From an uncultured Planctomycetia bacterium (GTDB taxonomy: Bacteria; Omnitrophota; Gorgyraeia; 2-02-FULL-51-18), in assembly GCA_964374005.1 (NCBI GenBank), contig CAYJXB010000002.1:1-53590 (forward strand): a stretch of 53,590 bases of DNA, given 5' to 3'. The translations under genes and the position numbers were made by a program. The notes beneath the pieces were generated by a model. The model searched no databases. It had not been told where the DNA came from and saw only the letters and a list, made by a program, of their open reading frames with translations. How positions within the stretch are numbered: the stretch's first letter is position 1; every line of letters begins with the position of its first letter. This document shows positions 1-36,516 of this stretch, one piece after another.

Positions 1-17
1 AGGCATTCCTTGACAAC

Positions 18-419: not shown

Positions 420-3400
420 GGAGCGCGGCTGGCGGGGAAAGAGGACATCTGGATATCAGGGGATCAGCGATTAGGAGATCGGGGTATTGGGGTATCAGGG
501 ACATCAACTCAACAACTCACCGACTCAACAGCTCAACAATCTTTGGGTGCGCGGCTGGCAAATGACTTAAAAGCCATCAACCTATCGGGCAGACCTTTCT
601 GGTTATCGGCCGAAGAGGGATCAAAATTAGTTACAACACTTTTGGCCGAACTGCCTGCAAATCAGCGCGAGGCCGATATCCTGAGGCCTGTGCAGCAATA
701 CGCAAAAGGAGGATTTAATCCTTCCGACGTACCTCCGACCACCTTGCGGTTATCCGGCCATCTGATAGAATTTAGAAATCGTTCCGCTGGTACTTGGGAA
801 AAACTTCACGTCGATCCGGCGGATATTTTTCTTATCGATGTGGACGGCGAAATAGTGATTTTTCCTGGATTAAAGAATAAACTGTCAACCGAACTTTCGC
901 CCGAAGTTCTTCAAGGTCAGGTTGCTTATGCCGAAGTCAATCCTTTGGATAGGGATAAAGCGGCCCTGCTCCAACAGCTTGATCAGGCCGAAAGTTTTTC
1001 GAGAAAACCGGTCATCGGCGGAAATCTGAAGCTGGAATTTGAATCCCCGATTCAGCACGAACAGCTGATTCACGAAATCGCAGGGAGCCTGGAGGCGCTT
1101 AAAAACCAACGGCCAAACCTTGATCTGGGCAGTATAGACGTCTTCATCGCGCCGCAAGATGCGCATTTGGAAGCGTTGGCCAGAGCGATACAGCTTCTTG
1201 AGTTGAGGGGAGAGATCCGCAGAGGGCTTATCAAGCTTGGCGCTCAAAACGTCTCGCACGGAGAAAAAGGCGCGCATACGAGCGGCCTGCCTACGGCCCA
1301 AACGCTTAAGAATTTAGGAGTTGAATACGTCATCGTGGGTCATTCGGAGGCCCGCGAAGAGCTTCGTGAGACGGATCAAGAGATCAACCAAAAAATTAAA
1401 AATTTGATCGCTATCGGCGGATTGAAACCGGTGCTGGCGGTTGGAGAAAGCGCCGGACAAAGGCAAGCCGGTCAGACGGAGGGATTCGTCCGCATGCAAG
1501 TGTTAAGAGGTCTGGACGGATTAACGGCCGATCAAATTTTGACATCAGGTTTGGTGATTGCCTATGAGCCCATCTGGGCAATTGGTCCAAAAGCTATTGG
1601 AGCCGCCTCTCCAGAAGAGGCCAATCGTATCCAAAAGATTATCCGCCAGGCCCTTTTGGAGCAATTCGGATTAGAGGTGGCTTCCAAGACGCGAATTCAA
1701 TACGGCGGCAGTGTGAAACCTGAAAATGTGGCCTCTTTTGAACAAGAATTAAATATAGACGGCGGTTTGATTGGCGGCGCGGCCAAAAAAGGCGACACCT
1801 TTGTCCCGATCCTGTCCGCTTTTGCGGCCTCCGGCGCGCGGCTGGCGACGGCCATTTCCGCTGAGAAACGTGAAAAAATAGCCTCCATTAATCGGTTTTT
1901 GAATCAACCGCGCTTTAACAGAATCAAAGCAAATCGTCTCTGGACCGCCGATGATTTATACGAAGTCATGGTCGAAGAAGGCGTTTTTGAAGCGCCTAAA
2001 CTGCAGAATATTCTTGCGGACAAACTTTATAACGCGGCAGCGGAAGCTCAGCGCACCCGCAGTTTTGTCGCGACGGGCGGCGTAATGGACGGACCCAATG
2101 CGGCTGCCATGGCAGAAGCGGGCGCGAAAATCCTCTATTTCAGCGGCTGGCAGATGTCCCATCACTACGGTGAACCGGATCTGGCCAAATACCCTCTCGA
2201 TACCGTGCCGAAAAGAATCGCAGAAATTTATAAATTTTTACAAAATAAAGACACCAACCAAAAAGTGGTTTTCCGCCAGAGGATCAAAGCGATCGAGAAA
2301 ATATTCGATGAGCTCTTCCGAGAGATCAGAGCAAAGTCTCCGGCTGAATTAAATCAGGCCAAAGCGGCATGGGTGGCAAGATTCGTGTCCGCGGCCACTG
2401 AGAACGGAAAATCCAAATGGATTTACGTCAATGCTACGCGTGAAAATCCAAATCTTTATATTGGCGCTATTTTTGAAAAAATAGTCGAAGAGGCCATTGC
2501 GCAAAAAAGCTCCACTTCTCAGCAAAAAAGGGACGCGTTGCGCGAAGCTTCTTATTTTGCGCTCAAGGCCCAGCTTGTGGATTACCTCATCCCCATATTC
2601 GCGGATGGCGACACAGGACATCAGTCCGTCAAAGAAATGGTCAGGCTCTTTGTCGCCGCCAATTCCGCGAGCATCCATATGGAAGACCAGGTGCAGGGCG
2701 AGAAAAAATGCGGCCACATGTCCGGTAAAGTGCTTGTATCCATTTCCGAACACATGAAGCGTTTGGTTGAGGCCAGAAAAGAAGCGGACAAACTCGGTTC
2801 CAATCTCGTCATCATCGCCCGCACGGACGCGGAGGCGGCCAAGCTACTTCAAAGCAATGACGATATTCGTGACCATTATTTCATTCTTGGAACGTCCACC
2901 AAAAATCTTCCTAAATTAAAATACATCATTCAGCTGGCGAGACGCGATTTCAGCGACAGTCAGATCCGTTTGGACGAACTGGCTGGGCAGCACCCGGATC
3001 TGGTGGCCGCCATCCGCAAGGTTTGGACGCTTCGCGGCGTGATCACGGGCCGGCGCGTGGAACCGAACCAGCTTTTCTCCAATGAAGCGGGTTATACTTT
3101 GGACGCGGAAGAAATTTGGAATAGCCGCGAATCTATTGAATTTGGCGAAGACCGTTTAACCATGGACACGGTGCTCGATACCACTTATGACGATAGCACG
3201 GTCGCGTCTTTGTCCGTTCAAGAAATTTTAAATCTAAAACCCGCCGATATCGAAGACGAAATAGCCGCCATGCGCGCGCTTTCCGATCTTTGGAATTCCA
3301 AGGCCCAATTAAAGACATTTGCTCAAACCGTCGCGGACGCTATTCAGGACGAAGCTAAACGTAAGCAATGGCTGGCACTCACGAACCCTCTCAATGAAAG

Positions 3401-6400
3401 CACAGAGACCCAGAAGGTGCCGCGCTCCATCGAGGAGCTGAGGGAAGCCGCTAAGGCTGAATTCGGCGTCGAGGTCGATTGGGATTGGGAACCGGCCAGA
3501 ACTTTCGAAGGCTATTACCAGATTGATAAAAAACTGGGCGTCGTCAATTCTTCCGTTCGTATGCGCGAATTTTTAAAAATAGCCGATATCGGCTGGATGG
3601 AGCAGGACGGCCCTAATAAAAAACATTCCGCTGAATTGTCGGCGAATGTGAAAGCGGTTCCTCAGGGCAAAGACGCATTTCTATCTTTAAATCTCTCGCC
3701 TTCGTTTGACTGGAGCAATCCTGAAAAATGGAAAGATTCTTTAACGGAGGAGCAGATAGCAAACATCAAAGCCGCCAAAGCGCTTAAAGGTTTCAATTGG
3801 AATAAACAGGATACTTGGAGGAAATATTCCAAGGATATTCTTTTCTTCCTCGACATGCTGGAAAATTTTAGCCCCGAAATGGGCAAGCTCGGTTATCAGA
3901 TCCAGTTTGTCACCATTTTTCAAGACCATAATTCCACGCTCAACACTTATAGAGTCGGCATGGACCTTGTATCACGCGGCGCGGCTGGATATGTGCGCAA
4001 TGTGCAACAGGAAGAGCAGAGACTGGATTCAAGATTTGAAAGACATCAGACCGCGGCTGGCGTTCCTCGGGTTGACGGCGAAGATAGGTTGTCCAATCGC
4101 GGCGCTTCCGACTTAAGCGCTGGCGGAAAAGATTCTACGGAACATGGATTTGCGGCTTTGGGCATCCAACTGGGCGAGGAGGCTGGTTTGGGCGCATTCA
4201 CCGGCGAGGAGGTTCTTTTCTCGGCGGAGAATGGAGTTGCTTTTATTACCCTTAACAGGCCAACGTCCGGGAACGCGCTCACACTGGAGATGGTGCGTCA
4301 ATTGCGCACTTATCTAGCACAAGTTAAAACCGATCCTAACATTAAGGCGGTCGTGTTGAAAGGTGTTGGGACAAATTTCAGCACAGGGGATGATATCAAA
4401 TCGGTGGTGCGTGCGATCCACGAGGGGAAGATAGGCTTTGTTGATAGATTTTATGAGGAACAATACGCACTGTTACAGGAGATAATGGATCTATCAAGGG
4501 CGAAAGCAGTGATCTCGTTTGTGAACGGGTGGGTCATTAGCAGTGCCTTAGGTTTAGTAAGCTCGGGCAATTTTATTGTGGCGGATGAAACAACCAAGTT
4601 TGCGGCTTTGGATACCGGTTTGGGGCTGCCTCTCGGAAACGCGAACCCTTACCACATGCGCTTGAGAGTGCGCACACCAGCAGCGCGGTATTACGGCCTG
4701 ACGGGAGATAGTTTTAATGTGGCGGAGTCTAATGCTTTAGGTTTTGAAAACATTTTTTATTCACCGGCCACAAACCTCGCCGAGTTGGAGAGCGACATTA
4801 AAAAATTGGTGAGCGAGCTGAGTCGCAGGGGATTTGATGCGGATGATATTCTCCGTGAATTGGGTGTGATTTTGAAGCAGAGAACTGGTGAAGTCGATAG
4901 GACTTCACCAAAGTTGGAAGGCATCAACAAGTATTTTGGCAGTGATAAGGCGACTCTTCTGGAGATTGTTCAGTCTCTCGAGGCCCAGAGAAACACGGAT
5001 CCTTTCGCGGAGCAGACGTTAAAGATTTTGCAACTACGTTCACCTATTGCTCTTCAAGTGACGTTAAGTCTTATCGATGAGGTCACGAGTTTTAAAGACG
5101 CGTTAGACCATCAGTTGAAGGCCGTAAAATATTTGGCTACTCAAAATCCAGATTATGCTGAGGGGGTACAAGCGATTCTAGGGTTTGACGTATCGGCAGG
5201 TACAAAAACCGAGAAAAGAGAGCCTCGTTTTACAGGTGAGATGGGCAAGGTCGACGTGGCTGAATTAACCAAGGCTTTTGGAATTAGCGTCGGCGCGCGG
5301 CTGGCGGAGATTTCTTTCCGTGAGGATGACAAAGTCGGCAATGTCGAGGGCGCTTATAAAGACATTTATACGCCGGAAACCCTAAGCGTATTGAAGAAGC
5401 TCGCGCCGTTGACGGCAGAGCAAAATGATTTGATGAAAAAGCGTTACAACCGCCGCGAAGATCGTGCCGCCAATAAAAAAGATATCACGTTCCTCAATCC
5501 CAACAGTTACATTCCCGGGACCAAAATTTATGTTCGTGACGCGCGCAAAGGCAATTTTGAAGGCGCCTCCATCCCGCAGGATTTACAAAGGCAATGGATC
5601 CAGGGAACGGGACCTGCGGCAAGACCGAGGGAAACTCTCGAGAGAAGCCTCCGTAATATTGCTTACGCGCTTTTATCAGGAGCCGACGGTTGGATGTTTG
5701 ACGGAGAGGACGCATTGGGACAGGTCGACACGATGTCCCTGGACAATATCCGCAATCTCACGCTGGCCATTCATAAAGATCCCATATTTATGAAAGTCGC
5801 TGAAAATTTAGCCCAAGAACTCGTTCGCGACGGATTCCAACCTGCCGGTTTTGATTGGAAAAAGCAGCTGGATTTCACGACAAAGCTTTACCGCACGCGC
5901 GGGCTTCATTTGAACGACCGCCACACGATAGTCACCATTGACGGGAAAGAATACGCGATGTCGGCCACGATCGTAGACATGGTGCTTTACATCGTGAATA
6001 ACTATGAGCGTCTTTTGGATGAAGGATCTACGCCGACTTTTTATCTTCCCAAGCTCCAGACGGCCGAAGAGGCCGCGTTTATGGCCAAGATCATGGATGC
6101 GTTGGAGGATTCATTGATTTACAAGGACAAACCGCTCGAACGCGGTACGATCAAGGCTTTTGTGCTCGTCGAACAGCTTGAAGAATCTTTCCAGCTCATG
6201 GAGATAAGAGCCGCTTTAGGCAAACACTTTGTCGGTTTCAACACCGGCCGCTGGGATTATATCAACAGCGTCTCCGATGCCAAGGCATGGGATGAAAAAT
6301 TCATCAACCCGAACATTGAAGAAATCACGATGACTTACGGTTACATGGGTAACTATGAAGACCGTGTACGCCGCGCTTCTTATACGCCCGACCGTAATGG

Positions 6401-12400: not shown

Positions 12401-15400
12401 AAACCCGCGCCGGACCGGTCAGTTCGATGAAATCGTCGATGTGATCGAGGAAAGCGCCGAATTCAGCGTCAGGGGGGACCTGGATTATATCCGGGATGAG
12501 TTCGCCAAGCTCTTGAACGAACAAGGTTTTTCACAGCCGGCCTTGACGACTGAAAAAGCCAATAGCCAAGCCGGGAAAGCCTTTGATGAATTTAAGGCCC
12601 GGCCCGTCAAGAGACCTAAGCAGATCGAATCCAAAGAGGGAAGACTGACAAGTTCTATTTTTAAGGCTGACATCGGGTCCGCCCTGGGACATACCAAGCC
12701 GCTGTCGGTTTACATGGCCGTGGCAAGGGCTATTCTTGAAAAAGCCAAACGGGACGGTCTGATTAAAGATTATCTGGTGAAACGTAAATCCGTTGATCGG
12801 GAAGCGACCGATGAAAAGAATGGTGTGATCGAATTCCGTGTCGGGGATGATATCGAACTTCAGATCATTCACGACCGGCCTATTCAGGACAAAGAGATCC
12901 ATGGCCTGGCCTGGCGCGCCTTCTGGGCGGCCGGTTGGACGGTCATCGCGGATGATGTCTTGGAGCGCACCCCCTACGGGCTTCTTCAGGACCTTCCCAA
13001 TGCCAAGGATTTAGATTCTTTTGAAGAGGCTAAGATCGATCCTGCGACCTTCGAGATCATGAAGGAAAATTTAAAAGCATTATCCCTTGAGAACCCAAGA
13101 GCTATCGATGAGGATGAGCTCAAAGCCCTTGAGGAAAAATTCCACTCTGAATGGGAAGCGCAGGCTTCCGGTAAGCGCGTGTCAAAGAAAAAGGCCAGCG
13201 CCGCCTTCACCTTTACGGGCAATGTCAAAGGCTCAGGGATTGGTTCGGCGGAAGGTTATGTCGACCCAGGCAACTGGACCGTTTTTGCGTTTGATAAGGC
13301 CTCGCCGGGTGCTTTCAGCGTGCCCTTTATGAAGGCCGCCGAACAGGCCCTGAAAGACGGTGTTTACACCAATCTTCTTTTTGAAGTCGAGAAAGTCCGT
13401 CCTGAATATCAAAATGAAAAAGAGGTCCCGCAGGAACCGATCATTCTTGATTATGCCAATCTCGAGGAAAGAAAACTGATCGAGCGAATGCTTGGCGCCG
13501 TGAATGAATTCCAGATAAAGGCTATCCGTACCGTCGATGCCAACGGCCGTGTCAATCTTGTCGCCTCCAACTCAACCGACAGGCTCTATCAGGTCACTTC
13601 CGGCATATACGCCGGCAAAGATGACCCCGCCGGCATTATGGATACCAAGTTCGCCGAATATACCGTGCGGTGGATGCAGAACAATCTCTTTATCACTGAA
13701 GGCGACGAACGCGGTTCCCACTGGGCGTTTGTGTTACCGGTGGCGATGGACAAATCCTCACCCGGCACTCATTCAATCCCCACGGTGGTCGCCGTGAGCT
13801 TTACGGTGACACCCCATGGCAAGATAGAAAATGTCATTGACGTATTTGAGAACAACAAATTCGATGACATCCGCGCCAAAGCCGCTTATTTTAACTGGGC
13901 CTTTATCCGATCCGTCGGAAACATCGGCCCTAGAGGTGACGCAAGCTCCGTGGAATATACTTATCCCCTGTGGCTTAATATCAATAAGATCACCGCGGAC
14001 AATTCTCCTTACAAGGTTACGATTCCAATACGGGAAGCTGAGACACAACCTTCGGCATTACCGACCGCAACAACGGAAGCAAAGCCAATAACAGATTGGG
14101 AGAATAACATTCTGGCAATTCTTAAGGTTGAGGGCATTCATAATATTGAGGAAATACGTAAGGCAGTTCGCCAGGCTACACATCTTTATAGTAATCATAG
14201 AAACGATCTAACAAATCAGCAAAAAAAAGATTTAAAAGAGGCGATAGATAAACTGCGCAGACAAGTAGAAGGCGCGCGGCTGGCGCAGGAAGAGACAATG
14301 CAGCGTCTCGGTTTCAAACTAGCCGAGGGAGAGCAGAACAGAATCGCTTACAATCCGGATTTTACGCCGCTAGTGCTTAATGCCGATGTATGGATTCAGC
14401 CGCATGCGGTCACATCATTAAATGAGAATTCTATCATTCAAGGTAAAAGAGCGGATGAGGTCGCTAAAGCCGCTAACGACAATATCTCTACTTCGCTTAC
14501 CCAAACGGGCATTCAACAAGCAATACAGAGTTCAAACGAGCTTTGGCAGACTATCGGGAAGAAACTTATAAGCAATGAGTCCGTTATTTTCTTGCGAAGC
14601 CCTCAAAAGCGCTCGAAGGAAACGGCAGCACAATTTGTTGAGGTGGCTCGCACTCACGGAATCACCATCGATAATTCTTCCGACGAGAACGTTTCAAATA
14701 AAGCAGCGTATCAAGTCAAAATCGATGAAAATTTATTCGAGTTGGAGGTTGGCGCGCTCGAATCCAAATCCAGAGCTCAGCTCGAAGAAATCGAAGAATT
14801 GAGGACGGTTTCTAAACGTCAGAAAGAAAGAGACGCGTTTATGAAACCGCCCGCAGGTCAAAATTTACCGGAAGGCCAGAGTTTTATCGAGTTTGCCGAT
14901 CAAGTCGATCGTTTTTTGCAGCACATCAATAAAGAATATGCCGGAAAAACAGTCGTTGTCCTTGGCGCAAGCGCTGTTTGGACAGGCACAGCAAGAACAC
15001 TTCTCAGAACAAGACAGGCCAGGGAATTGTTCAATAAAAATTCATATGTGGATTGGAACGATAGAACGCTTGCACCACACAATAACCGTGAAAATCTGAT
15101 TCACCTGAATGAGGAGATTGCACCGACCGGCGCGCGGCTTGGAGAACGGCTAGAAGCTAGAGGCCGTCAGCTAGTGGCAAAAGAAATCCCTTCAGCCATT
15201 AGCCAACAGCCATTAGCCAATAGCCAACTAGGTGCGCGGCTGGCGAATTTGAGCGCGGATCTGGAGCATCTAAATAGAGGCGATGAATTCGTTCTTCAAT
15301 ATCGTGATAAGGATAAAAATTTACAAAGCATTCACGGTGTTGTTGACTTTGTTTCCATCGGCATAATAGTGACGGGTGATATTCTAGTCGTTTTAGGCAA

Positions 15401-18400
15401 GGGGGTTCTTACCGATAAAGTGGTGAACATAACCTATTTTCCCATAAAGCAGGGCAAAGTATTAAGCGAATCCACGAATATAGAGACGGATTTTAACAGC
15501 ATTGTTCGCGTCAACGCTCCGCCGGCATACGGGAAAAACACCGGCGCGCGGCTGGCGGTGACCAAGTCTTCTAAGGACCAGAGTAATATTTTGATGATTC
15601 CGGCCAAAAAAATTCTGACCGATTTGAGCGCGGATCAATTGTATGAATTAGCCGTCCAGGGCGAGAAGTTACGAGCGGCACAATTCGAAGATGAAATTAG
15701 AACCGACCCGACCGTTGCTGCGATGGCGAATACAAAGGGGAAACCTCTTGCGGATCTTAAGATCGCGCAGTTTAGAGCCGCTTTGCAGGATAATTTTAAA
15801 ACGGCCTATGGCAGCACGATTTACTATAGCAATATCACAAACCGCAGCGCTAAAAAGACATCCCATTATGAAATTGACGGGTTCACGGTAGGCACGGATC
15901 AAATCGCGGCCGATCCGAAGTTCGCACAGAAACTGCTTGCGGCCGTGGAAGATCATTTAAGGAGTCGTGATTTGATCCAAGTGGACCGGAGCGTGGGGCA
16001 GGACCCGTCCGATTCAAGGCATTTCCGGCTTATAGTGGACAGCAAGTATGGCCGTTTGGCGCATGAGCTAACGGCTCTGCATTTTCCCGCCGCGCCCGGT
16101 GCTTCTTCGGCGACGCCGGATATTTTAACGATTGATCTGCCCGATTTTGATTTATCCCAATACGGTTTAGCCGATCAAAAAGAGCCTTACATTTTAAGAA
16201 TTCCCAGCCGCGGGATAAATCTGGTGCTCGGGACGGATTATTTTGGTGAAATTAAAAAATCTGCTCTAACGTCCAACGGTTATCTGGCTAAAGAGGCAGG
16301 CAATCTGGCGCTTCACGCCGGAAGCAAGATCGTGCAAGTCTTGGATGCAAAAACGGGGAAAATCGTCACCAAGCGGGTCATCGCCTCCGGTCTTTCCGGA
16401 ACGGGCAAGACAACGACGCTTGTCGGTACGCAGGGTTTAAGCGGCGACGAATCTTCGACCATGTTTCAGGATGATTTTATCGAATTGCGTATTGAGCGCA
16501 GCGCCGCCGGGAAAATTACCGGGGTGAAAGTCAAAGGATTGGAAGCGGGCGTTTACTATAAGACCGAACGCCTTGATCCGAACAAAGAACCAGAATTATT
16601 TAAGGCCGCCAAACACCCGAGCACGATTTTGTCGAATGTATGGATGAACCAGGCCAAGGACGGTTTGGTGCCAGATTATGACAATACCGATATTACGGGC
16701 AATGGCCGCGGTGTGGTGAGCCGCGCACAAATCACGGATCATCCTTCCGTGGATATGGACGGTTTGGATATCGTCGTTTGGTTGACGCGCCGCGAGACGA
16801 TCGTGCCGGCTATGGCCAAATTAAACCCCGACCTGGCGGCGGCTTTGTTTTTGCTCGGCGAATCCGTTATCACTTCAGCGGCTGACCCGACACGGGCCGG
16901 GGAATCCGTGCGTGAGGCCGGATTTAGCCCGTTTATTGTCGGGTCCGTTTCGGCTGAAGCCAATTTATTGTTGGAAATTTTTGAAGCGCTTCCTCAGATC
17001 GAAGTGGTGTTGGCAAATACCGGCAAAGTCGGGGCGACTTACGGCGAAGGCGCCAAGCCGGGCGCGAAAATTGATGTGCCGGATTCCGCCGCGCTTTTTA
17101 AAGCGCTCTTTCGCGGGAATATTGCGACACGCCCTGATCCGGATTGGGGATATGAAGTCGCTTACGAAGTGCCGGATTATGATATTTCCAGACTTGACCC
17201 GGGCGTTCACTACACTCCGGATGGAATAGCGGCTCTGACCGCAAAACTCCGCGCAGAACGCGTTCAGTGGCTTCAAAGATTTCCCGGGCTAAACCCAAAA
17301 ATCATAGATGCTATTCAAAACCCCAACGCCGGCGCGCGGCTTGGAGAACGGCTAGAAGCTAGAGGCCGTCAGCTAGTGGCAAAAGAAATCCCTTCAGCCA
17401 TTAGCCAACAGCCATTAGCCAATAGCCAACTAGGTGCGCGGCTGGCGGATGTTAATGCCTTAAAACAGGAGATCAAAAGGGCGGCGTCCAATTTATTAGC
17501 CATGGTTAGTGACAAATCTTTTGAAGAGCGTGTTTCTCATTCCAGCATTTCTTCGGGCGATATCGCCAAATTCTTGGACATAACTAAGCAGTTGGAAACG
17601 GTTCTAAAGCAGTTCCTGGATGAGCGGGATCCGCGTTTCTATGAAAATTATGATGCTCTTGTAGACGATGTCGATCAAGTATTCCGGGATAAGACGAATA
17701 TCATTTTTGACTATGCTTTTCAGGAAGGTGCGGAAGATTTTATGGTTGCGATAGGACCTTTCTACCAAGCTTTCATCGAACTGGTTAATTCTTTGAACGC
17801 GTTGAAACTTTCAAGAGGCGCGCGGTTGGCGAGTGAGCAAGGGCAGGTGGATTTGCTTAACGAGGTCAAAGACTATCTTAATTCTCCCGAAGGTATTACT
17901 CGACGGGAGAAAGGAGATACGCGAATCATTTATCTCAAATCAGTGCTTAAGGGTACCGTCAATAAACCCCAAGGCCAGTGGCTTACGGACGAACAAATAA
18001 GGGGTATAAAGACCCATTTGCGGGATTTAAAGCAGATAGCTTATACCGATCCGCTGGTTCTTAAAAAATGGGCGAAAGGAAAAATCAATGCAAATATTCC
18101 GGCAGAGAACATCGCCGAGGCGTTGTTCGAACGAATCGCGCGCGTTCTCGAATATCAAAAGACCGGACATGATGCGACGGTGTGGATGCGCACGGCGGCA
18201 CCCGCCACGACGGAAACAATCCTCGCTATACGGGATGCAGCTAAACAAAAGGAAGCGGCTCTCCGGTTCATTCAAATGATCTTGCCCGTTGCGCCGGAAA
18301 AAGTCGATGCCTATCAAGCAAGAGCCATCACTGAACTGGCGGTTCAATTAAGACTCACGGACACAGTCGTCATTGATTCTCTCCGTATGATTATCGAAGC

Positions 18401-20930
18401 TGACAAGAAACGCGAACGTCCATTTTCAAATCCCCAGATTTTAAGAAATGCTCAGAAAGCCTTATCGCCTAGCCAAGAGGGCGCGCGGCTGGCGTTGGTT
18501 TTGACCCGCAAAGAAGGCCAATCTATTCTGATCGGTGACAACATCAGGGTAAAAGTGGAACGAATTAACCGGACCGGCCGTGATAAATTTATTGTACTTT
18601 TGGGCACCGTGGCTCCTAAAAATGTGGCGGTAAACAGGCAGGAGATCTATGATGCCAAGATCAGGGATAACACTCCGCTTGTGAAACCTGAAGACCGACA
18701 CCGTACGGAAGGTACGCATCCGGTTTATGCGCGCAAAGAGGGTGAATCCATCGTGATCGGCGGCCCCGAAAATAAAATTACGATTAAAGCGACAAATATA
18801 GTATACGATCGGCTAAGTCTTGTGATTGAAGCACCCAAGTCCGTCCGTATTTTGCGCGCGGAACTCCGCGGCGCGCGGTTGGCGGCTAACGATCGCGTTC
18901 GCCAGATACAGGAAAGATTGGTCGAGATTGAGACAAAACTTAGAGAATTAAGCAAACAGGAAAGATATTTAGAAAAGCAGCCTGTGCTTAAACCGAACAC
19001 GATCGGCGTCGAAATTGGCAAACTCAATAAAGAAAAGAGGGTATTAACAGAAGAACTCGGACGATTGCAATCTTCAACGGATGGCGCGCGGCTAGCGTTG
19101 GTGTTAGGGACAAAAGAAGGTGACACCATTGAAATTTTTGATAAAAATAAGGACAATCCGCTTTACACACTTAGAATTCAGAAATACTTGCCTGGTAAGG
19201 GAAGCGAAAGATCCCATGTCCTTCTTGAGGTCGAAGATCGAAAGTCCAAGCAATTCTCTTCGCTGGTTCTTTTTCTAAGAGGATATGAACCTGGAAGCGA
19301 GCAGTATGTCACAACGTTGGACAGCCAAAAACAAATAAGCCTTTTCTTCTCCGGATTAGCCGAAGGCAGGACTAACCAACCTATCAAACTCGCTTTCACG
19401 GCCCCGAGAGACATCTTAATTTACAGAAGCAAGCTAATCTCCGGTGCGCGGCTGGCGAATGAAGAGATCCCTACCGCAGAAAGGTTAGCTGCCGCAAAAG
19501 AGTTATACGAACGTATTCTCGAACTGATTACTTCTCCTCTACTGCAACCGCGGAAAGAACAATTGACCGACGGGATCAAAGAATTAGAAGAGACGATCCG
19601 CGCCTTAGGCGTTGCGCGCAACAAATTGACTCCACAAGATAAGGGAGTGGGCTTTGATGCCGACATTTTAAAGCAAATAGAAAGTTTAGAAGAACTATTA
19701 CAGGAAGTAAGATTAAAAGAATCCGGCCCCCGGCCCTACGGGCCGATAGGCCCGGAGGGCGCTCGACTCGTAGCAGCGCCGAAGGAAACGCGTTTCCCGC
19801 AAGAGCTATTGGACAGTGTGAAAAGGCCTCTAGTTTTTCGCGATAATTCCTTAAACGCGTTATTGAACCGCGAGCGTGATAATGCAGTCAGTAATGTCTC
19901 TGAATTTGGTCCAGAAGTCGTTGAGTCCCCTGAGCTAAAGGCCTTTGCCCTGGAGCTTTTTGTTGCAAGGACGCGGGACATTCGTTCGAGCAAGCTTTTC
20001 GCGCTCGCCTCATTCGTTTTTGAACCGGTTGTCGTCAAAGAAGGAGAGAAAGAAGTCTATTACTTGAAAGTCAGGAACCAAGAAGGACAGGGCAATAAGA
20101 TTAAGATACTGTCGTCCACTCAGCTTGCAAAAGAGGTAAGGTCGGAACTCACGAAGCTCCGCGCAACAGAAGTTCATGCTGAGAATGTTCAACAGGGCCT
20201 GGTCCAGGCGATCACCATCGCGGATCACGAGATTCGCCAGGCCGTTTTTTCAAATCTTTCGGATGTTTCAAGCCCTGTGACCTATGAACTGCCATTAAGC
20301 ATTTTCTCCGGATTTCAGTCAAAAGACGCTTCTCAGTTTGAAGTTCACGCCGAATACCTTGTTCTGCGAGCCCTGGCTTTCCTGAAACAAAGGGAAAATC
20401 GCCAAAGCCATTTGTATCTAAGCGGTTTAGAGGTCCTCACGCAAGCTCAGCAAACATTTTTCCGTGAAGCGGTTCAAAAATATCGGGCCGAGAATCTGAT
20501 CTTGTTCGGGACGGCGAAAGGCGATGTGATCGTGCAATTCGTGGACGCAGATACCCATCGTGAGGAGCTAAATCTGGATGTTTTCCGGAAAGTTTATATT
20601 CCCATTAACCGTATCCAAACAGAGGAATTGGCCGACTGGGCGGGCCGTTTCTACATCAGCGGCGGGCTCGCACATTTCTTTTCTTCGGGTGGTCAGCTGG
20701 ATTTCAAGGGCTACGATAAGACAAAGATCAGTCGGGTGCTGGATGTTTACAATTCCAGATCCTACGAGGCGATCTCAGACAGCGAGAAATTTGTCCAAGT
20801 CCTATCCGGACAAGAAAAGAAAGTAGCCGTCCTGAGGCGGTTTGTGCTGGGTAAAATTTACAAGATTCCGTTTGATAATATATTCCTGGCTTTCAGCACC
20901 ATGAAACGCATGCTAAGTCAAGCCGCTTAA
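18..20930 (+). CDS. Giant multi-enzyme fusion ORF (at least 6970 aa; central-carbon polyprotein-like), probably 5-prime incomplete in this window
   Basis: No in-frame stop for 6970 codons. The frame is also open from nt 3 to the ATG at 18, so the gene may start upstream. The translation contains, in order, TPI, isocitrate lyase, enoyl-CoA hydratase-like, malate synthase, PMM/PGM-like, cupin PGI, FBP aldolase/phosphatase x2, histidine phosphatase, ATP-PEPCK and CsrA-like modules. Twenty-one G-A-R-L-A-type pentapeptides separate the modules. Stop TAA 20928-20930 is followed by a hairpin terminator. Confidence 0.9.
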   Translation: MFSKMSQESETKAVLITGGYHAPNLKSLLKSKKISYVSIRPQVFHETNQKRYEKLLLNQQIDPTLVNRYIANVGKLQSHSTANMLRPWMGKDMPFLAAIAGEFGAPLSVLGVRSSEFGLPKISPLPTPSSELTPGARLAGKEDIWISGDQRLGDRGIGVSGTSTQQLTDSTAQQSLGARLANDLKAINLSGRPFWLSAEEGSKLVTTLLAELPANQREADILRPVQQYAKGGFNPSDVPPTTLRLSGHLIEFRNRSAGTWEKLHVDPADIFLIDVDGEIVIFPGLKNKLSTELSPEVLQGQVAYAEVNPLDRDKAALLQQLDQAESFSRKPVIGGNLKLEFESPIQHEQLIHEIAGSLEALKNQRPNLDLGSIDVFIAPQDAHLEALARAIQLLELRGEIRRGLIKLGAQNVSHGEKGAHTSGLPTAQTLKNLGVEYVIVGHSEAREELRETDQEINQKIKNLIAIGGLKPVLAVGESAGQRQAGQTEGFVRMQVLRGLDGLTADQILTSGLVIAYEPIWAIGPKAIGAASPEEANRIQKIIRQALLEQFGLEVASKTRIQYGGSVKPENVASFEQELNIDGGLIGGAAKKGDTFVPILSAFAASGARLATAISAEKREKIASINRFLNQPRFNRIKANRLWTADDLYEVMVEEGVFEAPKLQNILADKLYNAAAEAQRTRSFVATGGVMDGPNAAAMAEAGAKILYFSGWQMSHHYGEPDLAKYPLDTVPKRIAEIYKFLQNKDTNQKVVFRQRIKAIEKIFDELFREIRAKSPAELNQAKAAWVARFVSAATENGKSKWIYVNATRENPNLYIGAIFEKIVEEAIAQKSSTSQQKRDALREASYFALKAQLVDYLIPIFADGDTGHQSVKEMVRLFVAANSASIHMEDQVQGEKKCGHMSGKVLVSISEHMKRLVEARKEADKLGSNLVIIARTDAEAAKLLQSNDDIRDHYFILGTSTKNLPKLKYIIQLARRDFSDSQIRLDELAGQHPDLVAAIRKVWTLRGVITGRRVEPNQLFSNEAGYTLDAEEIWNSRESIEFGEDRLTMDTVLDTTYDDSTVASLSVQEILNLKPADIEDEIAAMRALSDLWNSKAQLKTFAQTVADAIQDEAKRKQWLALTNPLNESTETQKVPRSIEELREAAKAEFGVEVDWDWEPARTFEGYYQIDKKLGVVNSSVRMREFLKIADIGWMEQDGPNKKHSAELSANVKAVPQGKDAFLSLNLSPSFDWSNPEKWKDSLTEEQIANIKAAKALKGFNWNKQDTWRKYSKDILFFLDMLENFSPEMGKLGYQIQFVTIFQDHNSTLNTYRVGMDLVSRGAAGYVRNVQQEEQRLDSRFERHQTAAGVPRVDGEDRLSNRGASDLSAGGKDSTEHGFAALGIQLGEEAGLGAFTGEEVLFSAENGVAFITLNRPTSGNALTLEMVRQLRTYLAQVKTDPNIKAVVLKGVGTNFSTGDDIKSVVRAIHEGKIGFVDRFYEEQYALLQEIMDLSRAKAVISFVNGWVISSALGLVSSGNFIVADETTKFAALDTGLGLPLGNANPYHMRLRVRTPAARYYGLTGDSFNVAESNALGFENIFYSPATNLAELESDIKKLVSELSRRGFDADDILRELGVILKQRTGEVDRTSPKLEGINKYFGSDKATLLEIVQSLEAQRNTDPFAEQTLKILQLRSPIALQVTLSLIDEVTSFKDALDHQLKAVKYLATQNPDYAEGVQAILGFDVSAGTKTEKREPRFTGEMGKVDVAELTKAFGISVGARLAEISFREDDKVGNVEGAYKDIYTPETLSVLKKLAPLTAEQNDLMKKRYNRREDRAANKKDITFLNPNSYIPGTKIYVRDARKGNFEGASIPQDLQRQWIQGTGPAARPRETLERSLRNIAYALLSGADGWMFDGEDALGQVDTMSLDNIRNLTLAIHKDPIFMKVAENLAQELVRDGFQPAGFDWKKQLDFTTKLYRTRGLHLNDRHTIVTIDGKEYAMSATIVDMVLYIVNNYERLLDEGSTPTFYLPKLQTAEEAAFMAKIMDALEDSLIYKDKPLERGTIKAFVLVEQLEESFQLMEIRAALGKHFVGFNTGRWDYINSVSDAKAWDEKFINPNIEEITMTYGYMGNYEDRVRRASYTPDRNGNTVHWIGGMEPNIPVGSKEGVEAAMKKAVAGGQREFNAGAGGKWVASPKMVPIVRPIWEKGFAGQTNADGTPKVNNLEMKVKPLTYAAKDATGLTKLPEAPRTIRGARNLLSVGLQYGNAFERGFAAAALKPADFFGNDSILYLMEDAATGEIRLSILHEWVHKKAVITEDDSELGVKAGDVFTDELFKKLLEQEYQKLLSADNKDVHDDSKTTTLPIARQIVETYVLDPVKFAWYIDLLNIVLNVSNLDEATRRINLYTDTWKTTGKRITHNLDFALAGARLAAEKVAAREKFVISEKRLTLKAVLRQITMREPLTVEVERGTTVILSKAVTALGPNETALLLNRDDVVMVNGEHPTVSLEGRQQELIGKYSSTLSKPLSQTDAKLVRQMLRDYDYRSRGVGAPSPAVWFRWGIVWGQMALDRAAKSGVKKRTVVLANDGRIVDPEIIEALAAGLAYAGLDVIYTSAKHMDTATSYSWSVKQFNPLASIFITSSHVVAEMGEKIQGGKISISDIEGRLSSLSTREIKDESYKSYGKITPGTSSASTVSGEIVEADIRENVIRNNVLIGHAFSKPGALAQLDEAYRRAPDDILTVIKKWEDAIPAGSLPLDGMAIVVDGRHTESGSLGVESLRRLGANAIGLNTDVYALGGEHGADPSARENLSDLMKRMHDERVLIGLSFDLDGDRGAIVVRFEITQAEFDKLTDDEKEKCLLTDGRISRFLILPPDNLEAALIRPLLEQGGYRDLAEKTGGKKLAFVRDVLSSDMVDVIAKQNGAESFLTDSGYVFLKEKARELEKQGYLVVMLGERSGHTWTRVTGDYENPIAVAIQFAVMARQYQTAHPESVNPFMDFFKANTVPFKQSLRFQPEISMSLLRKLSGVDDWRFELNPDGKTLETKPTQVVIAGARNRVIRSLISYFRPGKTFGDLTIDELVYQKPSTSPDKMYRFVEVRFKTADGLPAGKFVMRASSNDPTFVASYETPARKGETLESPSVHDRYISIGGIVMQYLRRKGFTDVLDSKDGNTQIEAASLKAYLNFLDAFGARAVELTPLLGLPAVFDPSTLAVTYGDGVGFLKAWQKTIGGNVMSGDALWKSLKLAVGYVDEEGNVGRQPDLSQFYSPEKILYHGHQGAYWNDKKLRTLLQENKLRPDVTVLPAGFIGEEYIRTEGHHHLSGLPEVYETVYGRNGYLLFKTVSEDSEDIADVMFIFAEEGDHVLFPPGYQHISINIGATPFVMTDWVSTEARPDFEYIKRHHGAPYWVVKGPDGQPRFVRNPRYKGKVPEIRLLRPAEEIPEFGLKKGVPMFNLVREGKIGLLRFLNDTNESGRYDAIYQKAFVPTQTRSESGARLSTEKESLAQPALTLAGARLASFDDKLERALQNSNRERVDELVQNDLLKGKQFRRSIGTNDARFTTGQIELLDLAIEAASGARLAHQAVIATPANPAASLNQDQQKRLSQLAGHEVSRAFIESRVFTFSLSDFDLYAETPKNKEDQQKDAIANFVKGAWSAGRESRELEGVTPDEQKTAENDLRDSLSLLQKAAQHLPTGSLNHVRFAFVLESATPNSEEVKFLTEVLGYPPQTHSYYGEASPELYKDDTGSVVATAGTFPYTKDGQEVKEPQTIYLSVAYLKRLAQLIHQDQPSAQEVINRVSHEVATLNWNLSAEGGLEARGNEAIESKVKALYQKSKDDQRAKWIDRDHNRTTELFVSVDLSKVLGPVTQIPESLVKKAETLLDQLKKQGVIKDHFITRIGNYLLLDISHNDGAKSQRISSLLDAVLFGALDETVNQRGLAPVPSEATQLRALLNWKEGEVRYSKRPSQPTLRQVIVGGAEKSSDGILFDLYASPNITTQQAIEGTHGTYFVAQNTEARQKGLGFTLPGGNNNRGLFHLLAVLKTAMHTVKAIFVGKTSRFPVDEPVAQAISLGDLQVIFYHSQAGAEAVGGISGPGTAPRIIEGTHGRRLSLKPVTLKEAVNLTPEKLRGEFAGYAPTIIWGTQVFDKNPRRTGQFDEIVDVIEESAEFSVRGDLDYIRDEFAKLLNEQGFSQPALTTEKANSQAGKAFDEFKARPVKRPKQIESKEGRLTSSIFKADIGSALGHTKPLSVYMAVARAILEKAKRDGLIKDYLVKRKSVDREATDEKNGVIEFRVGDDIELQIIHDRPIQDKEIHGLAWRAFWAAGWTVIADDVLERTPYGLLQDLPNAKDLDSFEEAKIDPATFEIMKENLKALSLENPRAIDEDELKALEEKFHSEWEAQASGKRVSKKKASAAFTFTGNVKGSGIGSAEGYVDPGNWTVFAFDKASPGAFSVPFMKAAEQALKDGVYTNLLFEVEKVRPEYQNEKEVPQEPIILDYANLEERKLIERMLGAVNEFQIKAIRTVDANGRVNLVASNSTDRLYQVTSGIYAGKDDPAGIMDTKFAEYTVRWMQNNLFITEGDERGSHWAFVLPVAMDKSSPGTHSIPTVVAVSFTVTPHGKIENVIDVFENNKFDDIRAKAAYFNWAFIRSVGNIGPRGDASSVEYTYPLWLNINKITADNSPYKVTIPIREAETQPSALPTATTEAKPITDWENNILAILKVEGIHNIEEIRKAVRQATHLYSNHRNDLTNQQKKDLKEAIDKLRRQVEGARLAQEETMQRLGFKLAEGEQNRIAYNPDFTPLVLNADVWIQPHAVTSLNENSIIQGKRADEVAKAANDNISTSLTQTGIQQAIQSSNELWQTIGKKLISNESVIFLRSPQKRSKETAAQFVEVARTHGITIDNSSDENVSNKAAYQVKIDENLFELEVGALESKSRAQLEEIEELRTVSKRQKERDAFMKPPAGQNLPEGQSFIEFADQVDRFLQHINKEYAGKTVVVLGASAVWTGTARTLLRTRQARELFNKNSYVDWNDRTLAPHNNRENLIHLNEEIAPTGARLGERLEARGRQLVAKEIPSAISQQPLANSQLGARLANLSADLEHLNRGDEFVLQYRDKDKNLQSIHGVVDFVSIGIIVTGDILVVLGKGVLTDKVVNITYFPIKQGKVLSESTNIETDFNSIVRVNAPPAYGKNTGARLAVTKSSKDQSNILMIPAKKILTDLSADQLYELAVQGEKLRAAQFEDEIRTDPTVAAMANTKGKPLADLKIAQFRAALQDNFKTAYGSTIYYSNITNRSAKKTSHYEIDGFTVGTDQIAADPKFAQKLLAAVEDHLRSRDLIQVDRSVGQDPSDSRHFRLIVDSKYGRLAHELTALHFPAAPGASSATPDILTIDLPDFDLSQYGLADQKEPYILRIPSRGINLVLGTDYFGEIKKSALTSNGYLAKEAGNLALHAGSKIVQVLDAKTGKIVTKRVIASGLSGTGKTTTLVGTQGLSGDESSTMFQDDFIELRIERSAAGKITGVKVKGLEAGVYYKTERLDPNKEPELFKAAKHPSTILSNVWMNQAKDGLVPDYDNTDITGNGRGVVSRAQITDHPSVDMDGLDIVVWLTRRETIVPAMAKLNPDLAAALFLLGESVITSAADPTRAGESVREAGFSPFIVGSVSAEANLLLEIFEALPQIEVVLANTGKVGATYGEGAKPGAKIDVPDSAALFKALFRGNIATRPDPDWGYEVAYEVPDYDISRLDPGVHYTPDGIAALTAKLRAERVQWLQRFPGLNPKIIDAIQNPNAGARLGERLEARGRQLVAKEIPSAISQQPLANSQLGARLADVNALKQEIKRAASNLLAMVSDKSFEERVSHSSISSGDIAKFLDITKQLETVLKQFLDERDPRFYENYDALVDDVDQVFRDKTNIIFDYAFQEGAEDFMVAIGPFYQAFIELVNSLNALKLSRGARLASEQGQVDLLNEVKDYLNSPEGITRREKGDTRIIYLKSVLKGTVNKPQGQWLTDEQIRGIKTHLRDLKQIAYTDPLVLKKWAKGKINANIPAENIAEALFERIARVLEYQKTGHDATVWMRTAAPATTETILAIRDAAKQKEAALRFIQMILPVAPEKVDAYQARAITELAVQLRLTDTVVIDSLRMIIEADKKRERPFSNPQILRNAQKALSPSQEGARLALVLTRKEGQSILIGDNIRVKVERINRTGRDKFIVLLGTVAPKNVAVNRQEIYDAKIRDNTPLVKPEDRHRTEGTHPVYARKEGESIVIGGPENKITIKATNIVYDRLSLVIEAPKSVRILRAELRGARLAANDRVRQIQERLVEIETKLRELSKQERYLEKQPVLKPNTIGVEIGKLNKEKRVLTEELGRLQSSTDGARLALVLGTKEGDTIEIFDKNKDNPLYTLRIQKYLPGKGSERSHVLLEVEDRKSKQFSSLVLFLRGYEPGSEQYVTTLDSQKQISLFFSGLAEGRTNQPIKLAFTAPRDILIYRSKLISGARLANEEIPTAERLAAAKELYERILELITSPLLQPRKEQLTDGIKELEETIRALGVARNKLTPQDKGVGFDADILKQIESLEELLQEVRLKESGPRPYGPIGPEGARLVAAPKETRFPQELLDSVKRPLVFRDNSLNALLNRERDNAVSNVSEFGPEVVESPELKAFALELFVARTRDIRSSKLFALASFVFEPVVVKEGEKEVYYLKVRNQEGQGNKIKILSSTQLAKEVRSELTKLRATEVHAENVQQGLVQAITIADHEIRQAVFSNLSDVSSPVTYELPLSIFSGFQSKDASQFEVHAEYLVLRALAFLKQRENRQSHLYLSGLEVLTQAQQTFFREAVQKYRAENLILFGTAKGDVIVQFVDADTHREELNLDVFRKVYIPINRIQTEELADWAGRFYISGGLAHFFSSGGQLDFKGYDKTKISRVLDVYNSRSYEAISDSEKFVQVLSGQEKKVAVLRRFVLGKIYKIPFDNIFLAFSTMKRMLSQAA
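1008..1832 (+). other. Triosephosphate isomerase module (preceded by an unassigned extension of about 150 aa, 561..1007)
   Basis: GGNLKLE (cf. NWK), GAQN, VGHSEAR (cf. GHSERR), AYEPIWAIG, YGGSV, GGLIGGAA. The catalytic N/K/H/E positions are retained. Confidence 0.8.
1848..4151 (+). other. Isocitrate lyase module (long form, about 770 aa)
   Basis: YFSGWQ, FADGDTGH, HMEDQ, KKCGHMSGK (ICL signature K-[KR]-C-G-H), IIARTDA, and the C-terminal HQ..AG...STEHGF. It begins directly after a GARLA junction. Confidence 0.85.
4206..5291 (+). other. Enoyl-CoA hydratase / 3-hydroxyisobutyryl-CoA hydrolase-like (crotonase fold) module
   Basis: EEVLFSAENGVAFITLNRPTSGNAL, AVVLKGVGTNFSTGDDI, and a long ECH_2-like C-terminal extension. 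Confidence 0.7.
5307..7238 (+). other. Malate synthase (A-type) module
   Basis: WMFDGEDALGQ, RGLHLNDRH, YLPKLQTAEEA, IKAFVLVEQLE, GFNTGRWDYINS, GGMEPNIP, GKWVASPKM, MEDAATGEIRLS. Confidence 0.85.
7579..9527 (+). other. Phosphomannomutase/phosphoglucomutase-like module (preceded by an unassigned extension of about 108 aa, 7254..7578)
   Basis: YDYRSRG (cf. YDIRG), VVLANDGR, ITSSH phosphoserine loop (cf. TASHNP), SFDLDGDRGAIV metal loop, GERSGH. Confidence 0.65.
9543..10436 (+). other. Cupin-type (archaeal-type) glucose-6-phosphate isomerase module
   Basis: TEGHHHLSGLPEVYETVYGRNG and PPGYQHISINIG match the cPGI motifs T-x-G-H-x-H...E-x-Y and PP-x3-H-x3-N. Confidence 0.7.
11508..12530 (+). other. 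Degenerate FBP aldolase/phosphatase-like module (probable pseudo-enzyme copy)
   Basis: It is collinear with the next module (LFVSVDLSKVLG vs IFKADIGSALGH; ITRIGNYLLLDISH vs RVGDDIELQIIH). The K and D of the KADIGS motif are replaced. Confidence 0.45.
12645..14030 (+). other. Fructose-1,6-bisphosphate aldolase/phosphatase (class V FBPase) module with insertions
   Basis: IFKADIGSALGH, VGDDIELQIIH, TGNVKGSGIG, YAGKDDPAGI, GDERGSHWAFVLPV. Confidence 0.75.
14286..15128 (+). other. Histidine-phosphatase (phosphoglycerate-mutase superfamily) module with atypical catalytic motifs
   Basis: WIQPHAVTSLN (cf. RHGET), LTQTGIQQA, SPQKRSKETA (cf. SPLxRAxxTA). The Arg of RHG and the distal His (VLGASAVW vs SHG) are not conserved. 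Confidence 0.5.
15129..15245 (+). repeat. 117-bp perfect direct repeat, copy 1 (GARLG - 29-aa spacer - GARLA)
   Basis: Base-for-base identical to 17331..17447, read directly from the sequence. Confidence 0.95.
15558..17330 (+). other. ATP-dependent phosphoenolpyruvate carboxykinase module
   Basis: LGTDYFGEIKK, LHAGSK, SGLSGTGKTTT (kinase-1a loop), FQDDF, GVYYKT, ITGNGRGVV. Confidence 0.8.
17331..17447 (+). repeat. 117-bp perfect direct repeat, copy 2
   Basis: Identical to 15129..15245. The two copies bracket the 99-aa unknown module plus the PEPCK module. The offset of 2202 nt is a multiple of 3. Confidence 0.95.
18495..18869 (+). other. Tandem CsrA-like (carbon storage regulator) RNA-binding module
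   Basis: LVLTRKEGQSILIGDNIRVKV...APKNVAVNRQEIY (cf. CsrA MLILTRKVGESI...APKEVSVHREEIY), then a second copy ARKEGESIVIG...LVIEAPKSVRILRAEL. The first copy begins exactly at the GARLA junction. Confidence 0.75.
19098..19442 (+). other. Second, more diverged CsrA-like module (apparently also two half-copies)
   Basis: LVLGTKEGDTIEIF directly after GARLA; C-terminal IKLAFTAPRDILIYRSKL (cf. IGIEAPKEVSVHREEI). Confidence 0.5.
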
Positions 20931-36480: not shown

Positions 36481-36516
36481 ATCGTGAACGAGGATACCTC
36501 AAGGAGGAATATTTAG

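Follow-up and report, generated by a model that had tools for sequence, protein, structure and literature searches.

Clade-specific pentapeptides bound the modules of a giant multi-enzyme protein and are candidate processing sites

The window analysed here is a stretch of 53,590 nucleotides (nt) from contig CAYJXB010000002.1 of an uncultured Planctomycetia bacterium (GTDB lineage Omnitrophota; assembly GCA_964374005.1). It begins with a giant open reading frame (ORF) of 6970 codons on the forward strand (18-20930, stop codon 20928-20930). Translation of this ORF yielded 21 in-frame copies of a pentapeptide, GAR[L/A]x, at the coordinates reported in a first-pass annotation, 16 of them exact GARLA and the others GARAV, GARLS, GARLG (twice) and GARLV. 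The sequences compared show the motif itself, its placement at module boundaries, purifying selection on the peptide, its clade specificity among related giant proteins, its sharing between genes of one genome and conserved residues of catalytic type in the N-terminal domain of the family. The encoded chain would be a metabolic polyprotein that is processed, with the pentapeptides as sites of recognition or cleavage, a reading to which we give slightly better than even chances; the occurrence of cleavage, its exact site and the enzyme responsible are what we infer.

No in-frame stop codon was present in nt 1-17, so the giant ORF runs past the left edge of the window (visible range 1-20930), the gene is truncated at its 5' end and its product is longer than 6970 amino acids (aa). 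A Pfam scan of the ORF identified triosephosphate isomerase (TIM), isocitrate lyase (ICL), enoyl-CoA hydratase/isomerase (ECH), malate synthase (MS), phosphoglucomutase (PGM), cupin-type glucose-6-phosphate isomerase (GPI, or PGI), FBPase_3, His_Phos, ATP-dependent phosphoenolpyruvate carboxykinase (PEPCK) and two CsrA domains. The gene encodes a multi-enzyme polyprotein combining the gluconeogenesis and glyoxylate-shunt pathways with CsrA regulators. No transmembrane segments were predicted in the visible ORF, and no SecA domains were found in it with Pfam.

On the basis of composition, 0.026 copies of GARLA and 0.28 of GARL would be expected in the ORF, consistent with the rarity by chance that had been claimed. 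The 15-mer GGCGCGCGGCTGGCG (≤2 mismatches) occurred 15 times in the ORF, always on the forward strand and in frame, versus 0.25 times in shuffled sequences. Neither the five alternative frames of the ORF region nor any coding frame in the other 32 kb contained the GARLA peptide; its frequency in unrelated genes, a concern of the first-pass annotation, was thereby found to be nil in the other genes of the window. The flanks of the copies were unrelated, as first described, with only G-A-R-L fixed. Chance, low complexity and assembly artefact were rejected as explanations, because the flanks are unrelated, the motif occurs in frame only and it recurs in independent JGI, ENA, NCBI and Logan assemblies. 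The copies are as follows.

420-434, + strand, motif 1, GARLA
546-560, + strand, motif 2, GARLA
1833-1847, + strand, motif 3, GARLA, end of TIM and start of ICL
5292-5306, + strand, motif 4, GARLA, start of malate synthase
7239-7253, + strand, motif 5, GARLA
9528-9542, + strand, motif 6, GARAV
10437-10451, + strand, motif 7, GARLS, 14-aa spacer to motif 8
10494-10508, + strand, motif 8, GARLA
10686-10700, + strand, motif 9, GARLA, divergent codons GGC GCC CGT CTC GCC
14271-14285, + strand, motif 10, GARLA
from 15129, + strand, motif 11, GARLG, in the left copy of a 122-nt repeat
from 15231, + strand, motif 12, GARLA, in the left copy of the 122-nt repeat
15543-15557, + strand, motif 13, GARLA
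from 17331, + strand, motif 14, GARLG, in the right copy of the 122-nt repeat
from 17433, + strand, motif 15, GARLA, in the right copy of the 122-nt repeat
17817-17831, + strand, motif 16, GARLA
18480-18494, + strand, motif 17, GARLA, immediately before LVLTRK, the CsrA start
18870-18884, + strand, motif 18, GARLA
19083-19097, + strand, motif 19, GARLA, immediately before LVLGTK, the CsrA start
19443-19457, + strand, motif 20, GARLA
19758-19772, + strand, motif 21, GARLV, divergent codons GGC GCT CGA CTC GTA

Domains defined by Pfam or by homology make up 51% of the protein, and none of the 21 copies falls inside one (P = 3e-7). The first-pass annotation had placed the motif at native termini, and this mostly held: for the ends of TIM (0-5 aa ahead of the copy at aa 606) and PEPCK (extrapolating to the copy at aa 5772) and for the starts of ICL, both CsrA modules and MS (residue 10 of PDB 3cux aligns 10 aa past the copy at aa 1759), all four beginning immediately behind a copy. 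PEPCK, PGI, PGM, TIM and FBPase each carry 50-840 aa of additional N-terminal sequence behind their copy. An 11-nt copy of the motif core (CGCGGCTGGCG) was also found out of frame at 4052-4062, where the C-terminal part of ICL is conserved; a copy of this length would not be expected in 21 kb of sequence, but it is probably a coincidence. The modules between the copies are listed below.

3-203, + strand, C-terminal end of a conserved N-terminal domain (AFLDNMFSKM...VLITGGYH...SY...P...Y), including the invariant GG(Y/F)H His
561-995, + strand, module of ~145 aa, DLKxxNLSxxxxWLSxEEGxKL, directly after motif 2 and before TIM
996-1829, + strand, TIM module, catalytic K/H/E motifs GGNLK, GHSE and YEPIWAIG intact
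1848-5180, + strand, ICL and an enoyl-CoA hydratase/isomerase-family (ECH_2) domain in one segment
5307-7238, + strand, malate synthase module
7668-8912, + strand, phosphoglucomutase/phosphomannomutase (PGM/PMM) module
9825-10193, + strand, cupin-type glucose-6-phosphate isomerase module
12645-13961, + strand, fructose-1,6-bisphosphate aldolase/phosphatase (FBPase_3) module
14493-15008, + strand, histidine-phosphatase (phosphoglycerate-mutase-like) module
15792-17183, + strand, ATP-dependent PEPCK module
18495-18869, + strand, CsrA-like module 1, starting LVLTRK
19098-19442, + strand, CsrA-like module 2, starting LVLGTK
19773-20927, + strand, C-terminal region of 385 aa, function unassigned, ending ...KRMLSQAA

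Pfam and NCBIfam provided nothing usable for the N-terminal fragment, the ~145-aa module, segments 12, 15, 16 and 20, the first 650 aa of the FBPase segment or the C-terminal 385 aa. By eye, each CsrA module resembles a tandem pair of CsrA-like halves and is possibly a single-chain dimer.

A search with the N-terminal third of the protein recovered, through the TIM module, 16 large multi-enzyme fusion proteins, several of them annotated as Omnitrophota. No homologue was obtained with the C-terminal 1200 aa, a scan of a genome collection with the CsrA region returned no match, and no orthologue of the whole gene was found; the C-terminal region had no similarity to the C-termini of the relatives (BLAST, phmmer). 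The first ~60 residues of the visible ORF match the closing part of an N-terminal domain of ~500 aa (hereafter the N-domain) that is complete in the relatives P0015, P0016 and P0017; the missing part of this domain in the window gene, which in relatives comprises ~450 aa and a signal peptide, is located upstream of the window. With an N-domain profile, an exhaustive search identified 2,084 representative proteins at a cutoff of E ≤ 1e-30, a number that rose to 7,101 at 1e-10 and to 8,481 at 1e-3. The domain is nearly always N-terminal, its carriers are mostly 1-7.4 thousand aa long, and 112 of the 116 large members of the listed sample begin with a hydrophobic, signal-peptide-like stretch.

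The relatives contain junction peptides of the same or of other types. P0006, the closest of the relatives whose N-terminus is that of the window ORF, has GAR[L/M]x 14 times and GSRLA once, and P0003 has GARL[A/T] four times. In P0012 the peptide is RSELR (16 times, with one QSELR and one RSELQ), in P0002 DxAM[M/L] (eight times) and in P0005 SSPV. A wider survey, a crude k-mer test within a sample of 150 of the ~8,500 family members, added (A/G)ARL(A/S/T) in P0113 (7416 aa, ~20 copies), G(A/S)RL(A/S) in P0131 (~16 copies), RSE(L/V/A)R in five further proteins and R(A/P)ESR, xRTSP, AGFGA and GASLG in others. These peptides have dissimilar flanks and adjoin Pfam domains: the motifs flank such domains in P0006, P0012 and P0003, with TIM ending 6 aa before the motif in both P0006 and P0012. 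In P0112, ARTSP abuts the first CsrA residue (ARTSP-LALSRK; CsrA at aa 1658-1772). P0112 also contains glycogen synthase and transaldolase; the embedded CsrA modules accompany enzymes of pathways controlled by CsrA in E. coli, gluconeogenesis here and glycogen synthase in P0112. The DLKxxNLSxxxxWLSxEEGxKL module always begins right after a junction motif, once here and at least four times in P0006 (aa 451-1458); AlphaFold2 (AF2) gave no usable model of it (predicted local distance difference test, pLDDT, 43). The content and order of the modules vary widely among relatives. P0006 is cut ~90 nt from the end of its contig, and the window gene is likewise cut at an edge, which could hint at a repeat or another assembly-breaking sequence in this region.

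The type of motif tracks the phylogeny of the N-domain, with 40% identity within the GARLA group and 22% between this group and the others. The motif is also shared between neighbouring genes. At locus L082, an acyl-CoA-metabolism giant (≥5718 aa) directly upstream of P0012 carries six RSELR, and at locus L086 a second giant (8233-14122) beside P0064 carries GARL[T/S/A]. That two giant genes side by side in one genome use the same motif speaks for a reader acting in trans; this sharing and the agreement of motif type with N-domain phylogeny point to a putative genome-encoded reader that would have co-evolved with the motif. Giant multi-enzyme genes occur in pairs at both loci, each pair using one junction peptide; the domains of the L082 giant at 1-9979 are 3HCDH, methylmalonyl-CoA mutase, AMP-binding, HpcH/HpaI, MaoC and acyl-CoA dehydrogenase.

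We compared the conservation of the motif at the peptide and nucleotide levels. Nine nucleotide differences occur in codons 1-3 of the window copies, and none changes the amino acid. Among the relatives, RSELR is encoded with five Arg, four Ser and five Leu codons, and GARLA codons are mixed in P0003, P0064, P0087 and the second giant beside P0064. Pairwise identity of the motif at third positions was 0.29-0.43 in most relatives, 0.67 in the window and 0.62 in P0006. The motif peptide is thus under purifying selection, because the synonymous sites of the relatives are free and the differences in codons 1-3 of the window are all synonymous. The case for the peptide-level signal first suspected from copies with differing codons was much strengthened by relatives that hold the same or other clade-specific pentapeptides with varied codons.

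Two further features of the family are an unfused arrangement and recurrent C-terminal sequences. At locus L085 (7535-13987), the standalone N-domain protein P0017 lies between separate, elongated FBA (734 aa) and PGK (762 aa) genes, and this unfused arrangement shows that modules can work as separate polypeptides. The products of both genes have their own signal peptide, followed by SDLRA(P/S)AA, and a common C-terminal domain of ~200 aa without assigned function; SDLRA(P/S)AA would be a junction-like peptide at the place where a pro-peptide site would lie. At the other end of the chain, 53 of the 116 large members of the listed sample end in Ala and 32 in Ala-Ala, and the chains of P0003 and P0012 end 5-9 aa beyond a junction motif. 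A short C-terminal tail, ...(K/R)x(I/L)xxAA, is frequent among members (20892-20927 in the window; P0003, P0012, P0113, P0131 and others), and it may be a removable sorting or protease-docking signal.

We propose the following mechanism. The chain would start, as in relatives, with a Sec-type signal peptide followed by a conserved Tiki/Ere-like hydrolase domain and then by the modules, each functional module being bounded by a clade-specific pentapeptide. A dedicated endopeptidase would recognize this pentapeptide and cut the polyprotein into individual enzymes. The best candidate for the cutter would be the Tiki-like domain with which members of the family themselves begin; it would act in cis, or in trans in cases where it is encoded separately. 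Near-native N-termini would result if the chain were cut within the motif or directly behind it (A-LVLTRK for CsrA, versus native M-LILTRK).

The candidate role of the N-domain is supported by a residue signature, a structural model and weak matches to members of the Tiki superfamily. Members of the Tiki superfamily have a parallel beta-sheet core and 2His/2Glu residues, consisting of ExH, a Glu 28 residues later and a second His (PMC6254334). The near-invariant residues of the N-domain (148 members) are IQD107-A-H109, Q115, E137-G, R475-D and GG(F/Y)H503, with conservation of 97% for D107, 99% for H109, 99% for E137 and 100% for H503; the first acidic residue of this signature is Asp rather than Glu. 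The spacing of 28 between H109 and E137 equals that of His85/Glu113 in Bcr135 and of His3902/Glu3930 in RRSP (both PMC6254334). RRSP, a MARTX effector, is a site-specific endopeptidase of the Tiki superfamily (PMC6254334). The AF2 model of P0017 (pLDDT 81, predicted template modelling score 0.68) has an alpha/beta fold with a parallel beta-sheet core (strands 88-94, 101-107, 133-136, 185-188, 494-500 and 517-523, with flanking helices); the conserved residues lie at the ends of parallel strands, and a helical insertion of ~300 aa splits the core. The N-domain therefore resembles the Tiki/TraB-PrgY/EreC/ChaN superfamily in its alpha/beta parallel core and its (D/E)xH...28 aa...E...H signature, and gives weak hits to Pfam PF04187 and top-probability fold hits to EreC and Bcr135, but differs in the ~300-aa insertion and has no significant sequence or fold match there. 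Its assignment to the Tiki/erythromycin-esterase superfamily is plausible, not secure. The statement that no protease domain was evident stood insofar as the visible ORF contains no classified peptidase, but the ORF starts inside an N-domain with a Tiki/Ere-type signature. The N-terminal fragment of the window gene is nearly identical to P0138, its nearest N-domain relative. P0138 (690 aa, on an ENA contig of 2544 nt) ends in ...PPAGRARAGA and a stop codon, at about the position of the first junction; this end could be frameshifted GC-rich junction sequence or that of a genuinely separate N-domain protein.

Several observations weigh against processing or against this assignment of the N-domain. 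A Foldseek search with the P0017 model gave EreC (E = 0.34, probability 0.41) as the top-probability hit and Bcr135 (probability 0.30), none of the hits being significant. Matches to Pfam PF04187 ("Tiki superfamily, ChaN") were weak and limited to 4 of 24 members (best E = 3.3e-4), most members having none, and the N-domain profile had no match among PDB sequences. The Tiki superfamily also includes non-proteases (esterases, haem binders). Pfam revealed no domain of a classified peptidase within the visible ORF, and none was found next to the giant genes in five loci. A clear motif was obtained for only ~16 of the 131 large family members sampled in the crude k-mer test. Some enzyme pairs are not separated by a motif (PEPCK-TIM in P0012, TIM-methyltransferase in P0003), and there is no motif between ICL and ECH in the window ORF. 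The codon CGG is used in 19 of the 21 copies, versus a background of 13% (p = 3e-15), which peptide selection alone does not predict. Finally, the relatives look exported, and it is hard to see in biological terms why ATP-dependent enzymes should be exported by means of a signal peptide, a difficulty already noted by West-Roberts et al. (10.1101/2023.11.21.568195).

The pentapeptide may be read but left uncut, as a docking or scaffold, chaperone or translocon, or modification signal, the giant protein working intact as a tethered assembly. The evidence for peptide-level selection and a genome-specific reader fits this explanation equally well. No recognized protease was found nearby, some enzyme pairs are fused without a motif, and HrcA-GrpE-DnaJ lies directly downstream of the giants in L082. 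TIM, ICL and FBP aldolase/phosphatase, however, are obligate oligomers of different stoichiometry. CsrA depends on an N-terminal strand region that is free, and in two unrelated proteins the motif directly adjoins the first CsrA residue. The unfused L085 relative shows modules working as separate polypeptides, and the motifs close to the C-terminus of P0003 and P0012 are more easily read as serving tail removal. We therefore consider an uncut signal unlikely, though deserving of serious attention.

It is less probable still, and in our view quite improbable, that the motif acts mainly at the DNA level, as a joint or target of a recombination process assembling or shuffling in-frame cassettes, with the peptide as a by-product. 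The uniformity of the window copies reported in the first-pass annotation is real: GCG-CGG was confirmed in 19 of the 21 copies, GCG being used there in 19 of 21 cases versus 29% in the background (p = 5e-9) and CTG in 12 of 20 versus 16% (p = 1e-5). The high third-position identities of the window and P0006 and the variable module content and order of the relatives also fit a DNA-level role, as does a direct repeat that carries two motifs in each copy.

15127-15248, + strand, 122-nt direct repeat, left copy, 99% identical to the right copy
17329-17450, + strand, 122-nt direct repeat, right copy, encoding GARLG, 29 aa and GARLA, as does the left copy

These repeats bracket a 104-aa unassigned module and PEPCK. 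The bracketed PEPCK segment has the appearance of a cassette recently inserted or duplicated, and the repeats could allow loss of the PEPCK cassette through homologous recombination. Most relatives nevertheless keep the peptide with near-random synonymous sites, the differences in codons 1-3 of the window change no residue, and the motif is always in frame, in one orientation and absent outside giant ORFs. Among the sampled neighbours in the window and the genes called in the fetched loci, none encodes an integrase, transposase or recombinase, and the motif, unlike an integron-like junction, has no inverted-repeat partner or attC-like structure. RNA or DNA folding around it was no stronger than predicted from GC content (residual -0.17 kcal/mol, standard deviation 3.4). 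The suggestion that the motif is primarily a recombination scar was thus not supported, since the peptide is conserved through synonymous change in the relatives. It is possible that the codon uniformity in the window reflects recent spread or homogenization, or that the motif has a second function in the DNA, for example by offering microhomology when cassettes are exchanged.

Separation of the modules at the RNA or translation level, through mRNA cleavage and internal initiation at CTG, TTG or ATG or through 2A-like skipping, can practically be dismissed: although position 4 is Leu or Met encoded by these codons in most copies here and in P0006 and the 15-mer is uniform at the RNA level in the window, CTC, CTT, CTA and TTA are also used at this position, RSELR, xRTSP and AGFGA lack codons resembling a start, the sequence upstream is not conserved and includes nothing like a Shine-Dalgarno element, the region folds no better than its GC content predicts, and the motif has neither the NPGP of the 2A/StopGo consensus D(V/I)ExNPGP nor conserved flanks comparable to its conserved upstream stretch of ~18 aa.

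Processing of the giant protein at its pentapeptides would have parallels in known systems. In the MARTX toxins of Vibrio, effector modules of a giant secreted chain are freed by a built-in protease that cuts the linkers between modules; the MARTX cysteine protease domain cuts after Leu and before a small residue. The window ORF differs in having no RTX/GD-rich repeats or C80 cysteine protease domain (Pfam), and the system described here, known from sequence, differs in its central-metabolism enzymes and CsrA, its strict clade-specific pentapeptide and its candidate N-terminal Tiki-like protease. The polyproteins of picorna-, poty-, alpha- and nidoviruses are likewise encoded by one ORF with short lineage-specific motifs at native termini, and their cleavage motifs co-evolve with the cognate protease. 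Here, in contrast, a chromosomal gene flanked by housekeeping genes has a metabolic payload, and no chymotrypsin-like or papain-like protease. The analogies with alphavirus nsP2 and double-glycine peptidases drawn initially were not upheld, no such domains being found with Pfam; in particular, the ORF lacks the C39 domain associated with double-glycine leaders (LSxxELxxIxGG-type). Multi-cassette precursors of ribosomally synthesized and post-translationally modified peptides (RiPPs), such as cyanobactin PatE, also contain repeated short recognition sequences flanking cassettes. In these precursors, dedicated proteases recognize the repeated sequences, which may be conserved even in their nucleotides although the cassettes differ; the cassettes there are of 6-8 residues, whereas those described here are whole enzymes of 100-1200 aa. 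If processing occurs, the window gene would be a cellular, chromosomal counterpart of the viral polyproteins, encoding a whole pathway and its regulator.

Whether the giant ORFs of Omnitrophota and related bacteria are translated into one working chain or a chain that is cut is a recognized puzzle (10.1101/2023.11.21.568195). Giant Omnitrophota proteins were reported to hold TIM, GPI, FBPase, PGM/PMM and FBA domains in predicted extracellular regions, and cleavage was proposed, with C39 and S8 peptidase domains invoked but no information on the cleavage points (West-Roberts et al. 2023; 10.1101/2023.11.21.568195). The "Archaeovorins" of that study have at least 30,000 aa, many transmembrane helices and SecA-like domains (10.1101/2023.11.21.568195); the window protein (6970+ aa) has none of these features in its visible part and shares only glycolytic domains with them. 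The junction pentapeptides would provide candidate cleavage points and a candidate enzyme for a family of proteins smaller than, and distinct from, the Archaeovorins. Neither the junction motifs nor the N-domain are mentioned in West-Roberts et al., in a 2026 survey of complete genomes or in Seymour et al. 2023. In the accessible literature, a full-text search for GARLA returned surnames and unrelated matches, and searches for bacterial polyproteins returned nothing relevant. The motifs could be used to split the giants computationally into modules for annotation and structure prediction, and enzymes inside such giants may escape genome-based metabolic reconstructions. We suggest, tentatively and as a scenario more doubtful than probable, that thousands of representative clusters, some of them in Omnitrophota, form a large class of polyproteins that are exported and process themselves. 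In this scenario a signal peptide and a Tiki-like endopeptidase would lead a series of central-metabolism enzymes and regulators such as CsrA, each module would be released at a clade-specific "cleavage code", and the payload could act outside the cytoplasm, perhaps in prey or host cells, to rewire carbon metabolism; the junction, uniform in its nucleotides in this lineage, may double here as a microhomology site for cassette swaps.

The GARLA-type member P0087 is annotated as Candidatus Omnitrophota. The BipA protein of the window is closest (79-85% identity) to metagenome-assembled genomes (MAGs) labelled Planctomycetia and others, and the BipA-linked loci of the closest MAGs (±10 kb) contained neither a GARLA-type giant nor the 15-mer. 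ICL, malate synthase and an aerobic terminal oxidase were reported absent from the 176 complete Omnitrophota genomes of the 2026 survey; the window organism either differs from these genomes or lies outside that set. The rest of the window consists of housekeeping genes, including those for LpxA, a Liv ABC transporter, DacA, Maf, cytochrome oxidase, BipA and MgtE. An ORF of 794 aa at 38206-40590 holds COX1 and COX3 domains, corresponding to a fused cytochrome oxidase subunit I+III. Radical SAM/SPASM, flavin amine oxidase-family and fatty-acid desaturase-family proteins are encoded in a row at 33911-37596, possibly forming a small modification or lipid cluster.

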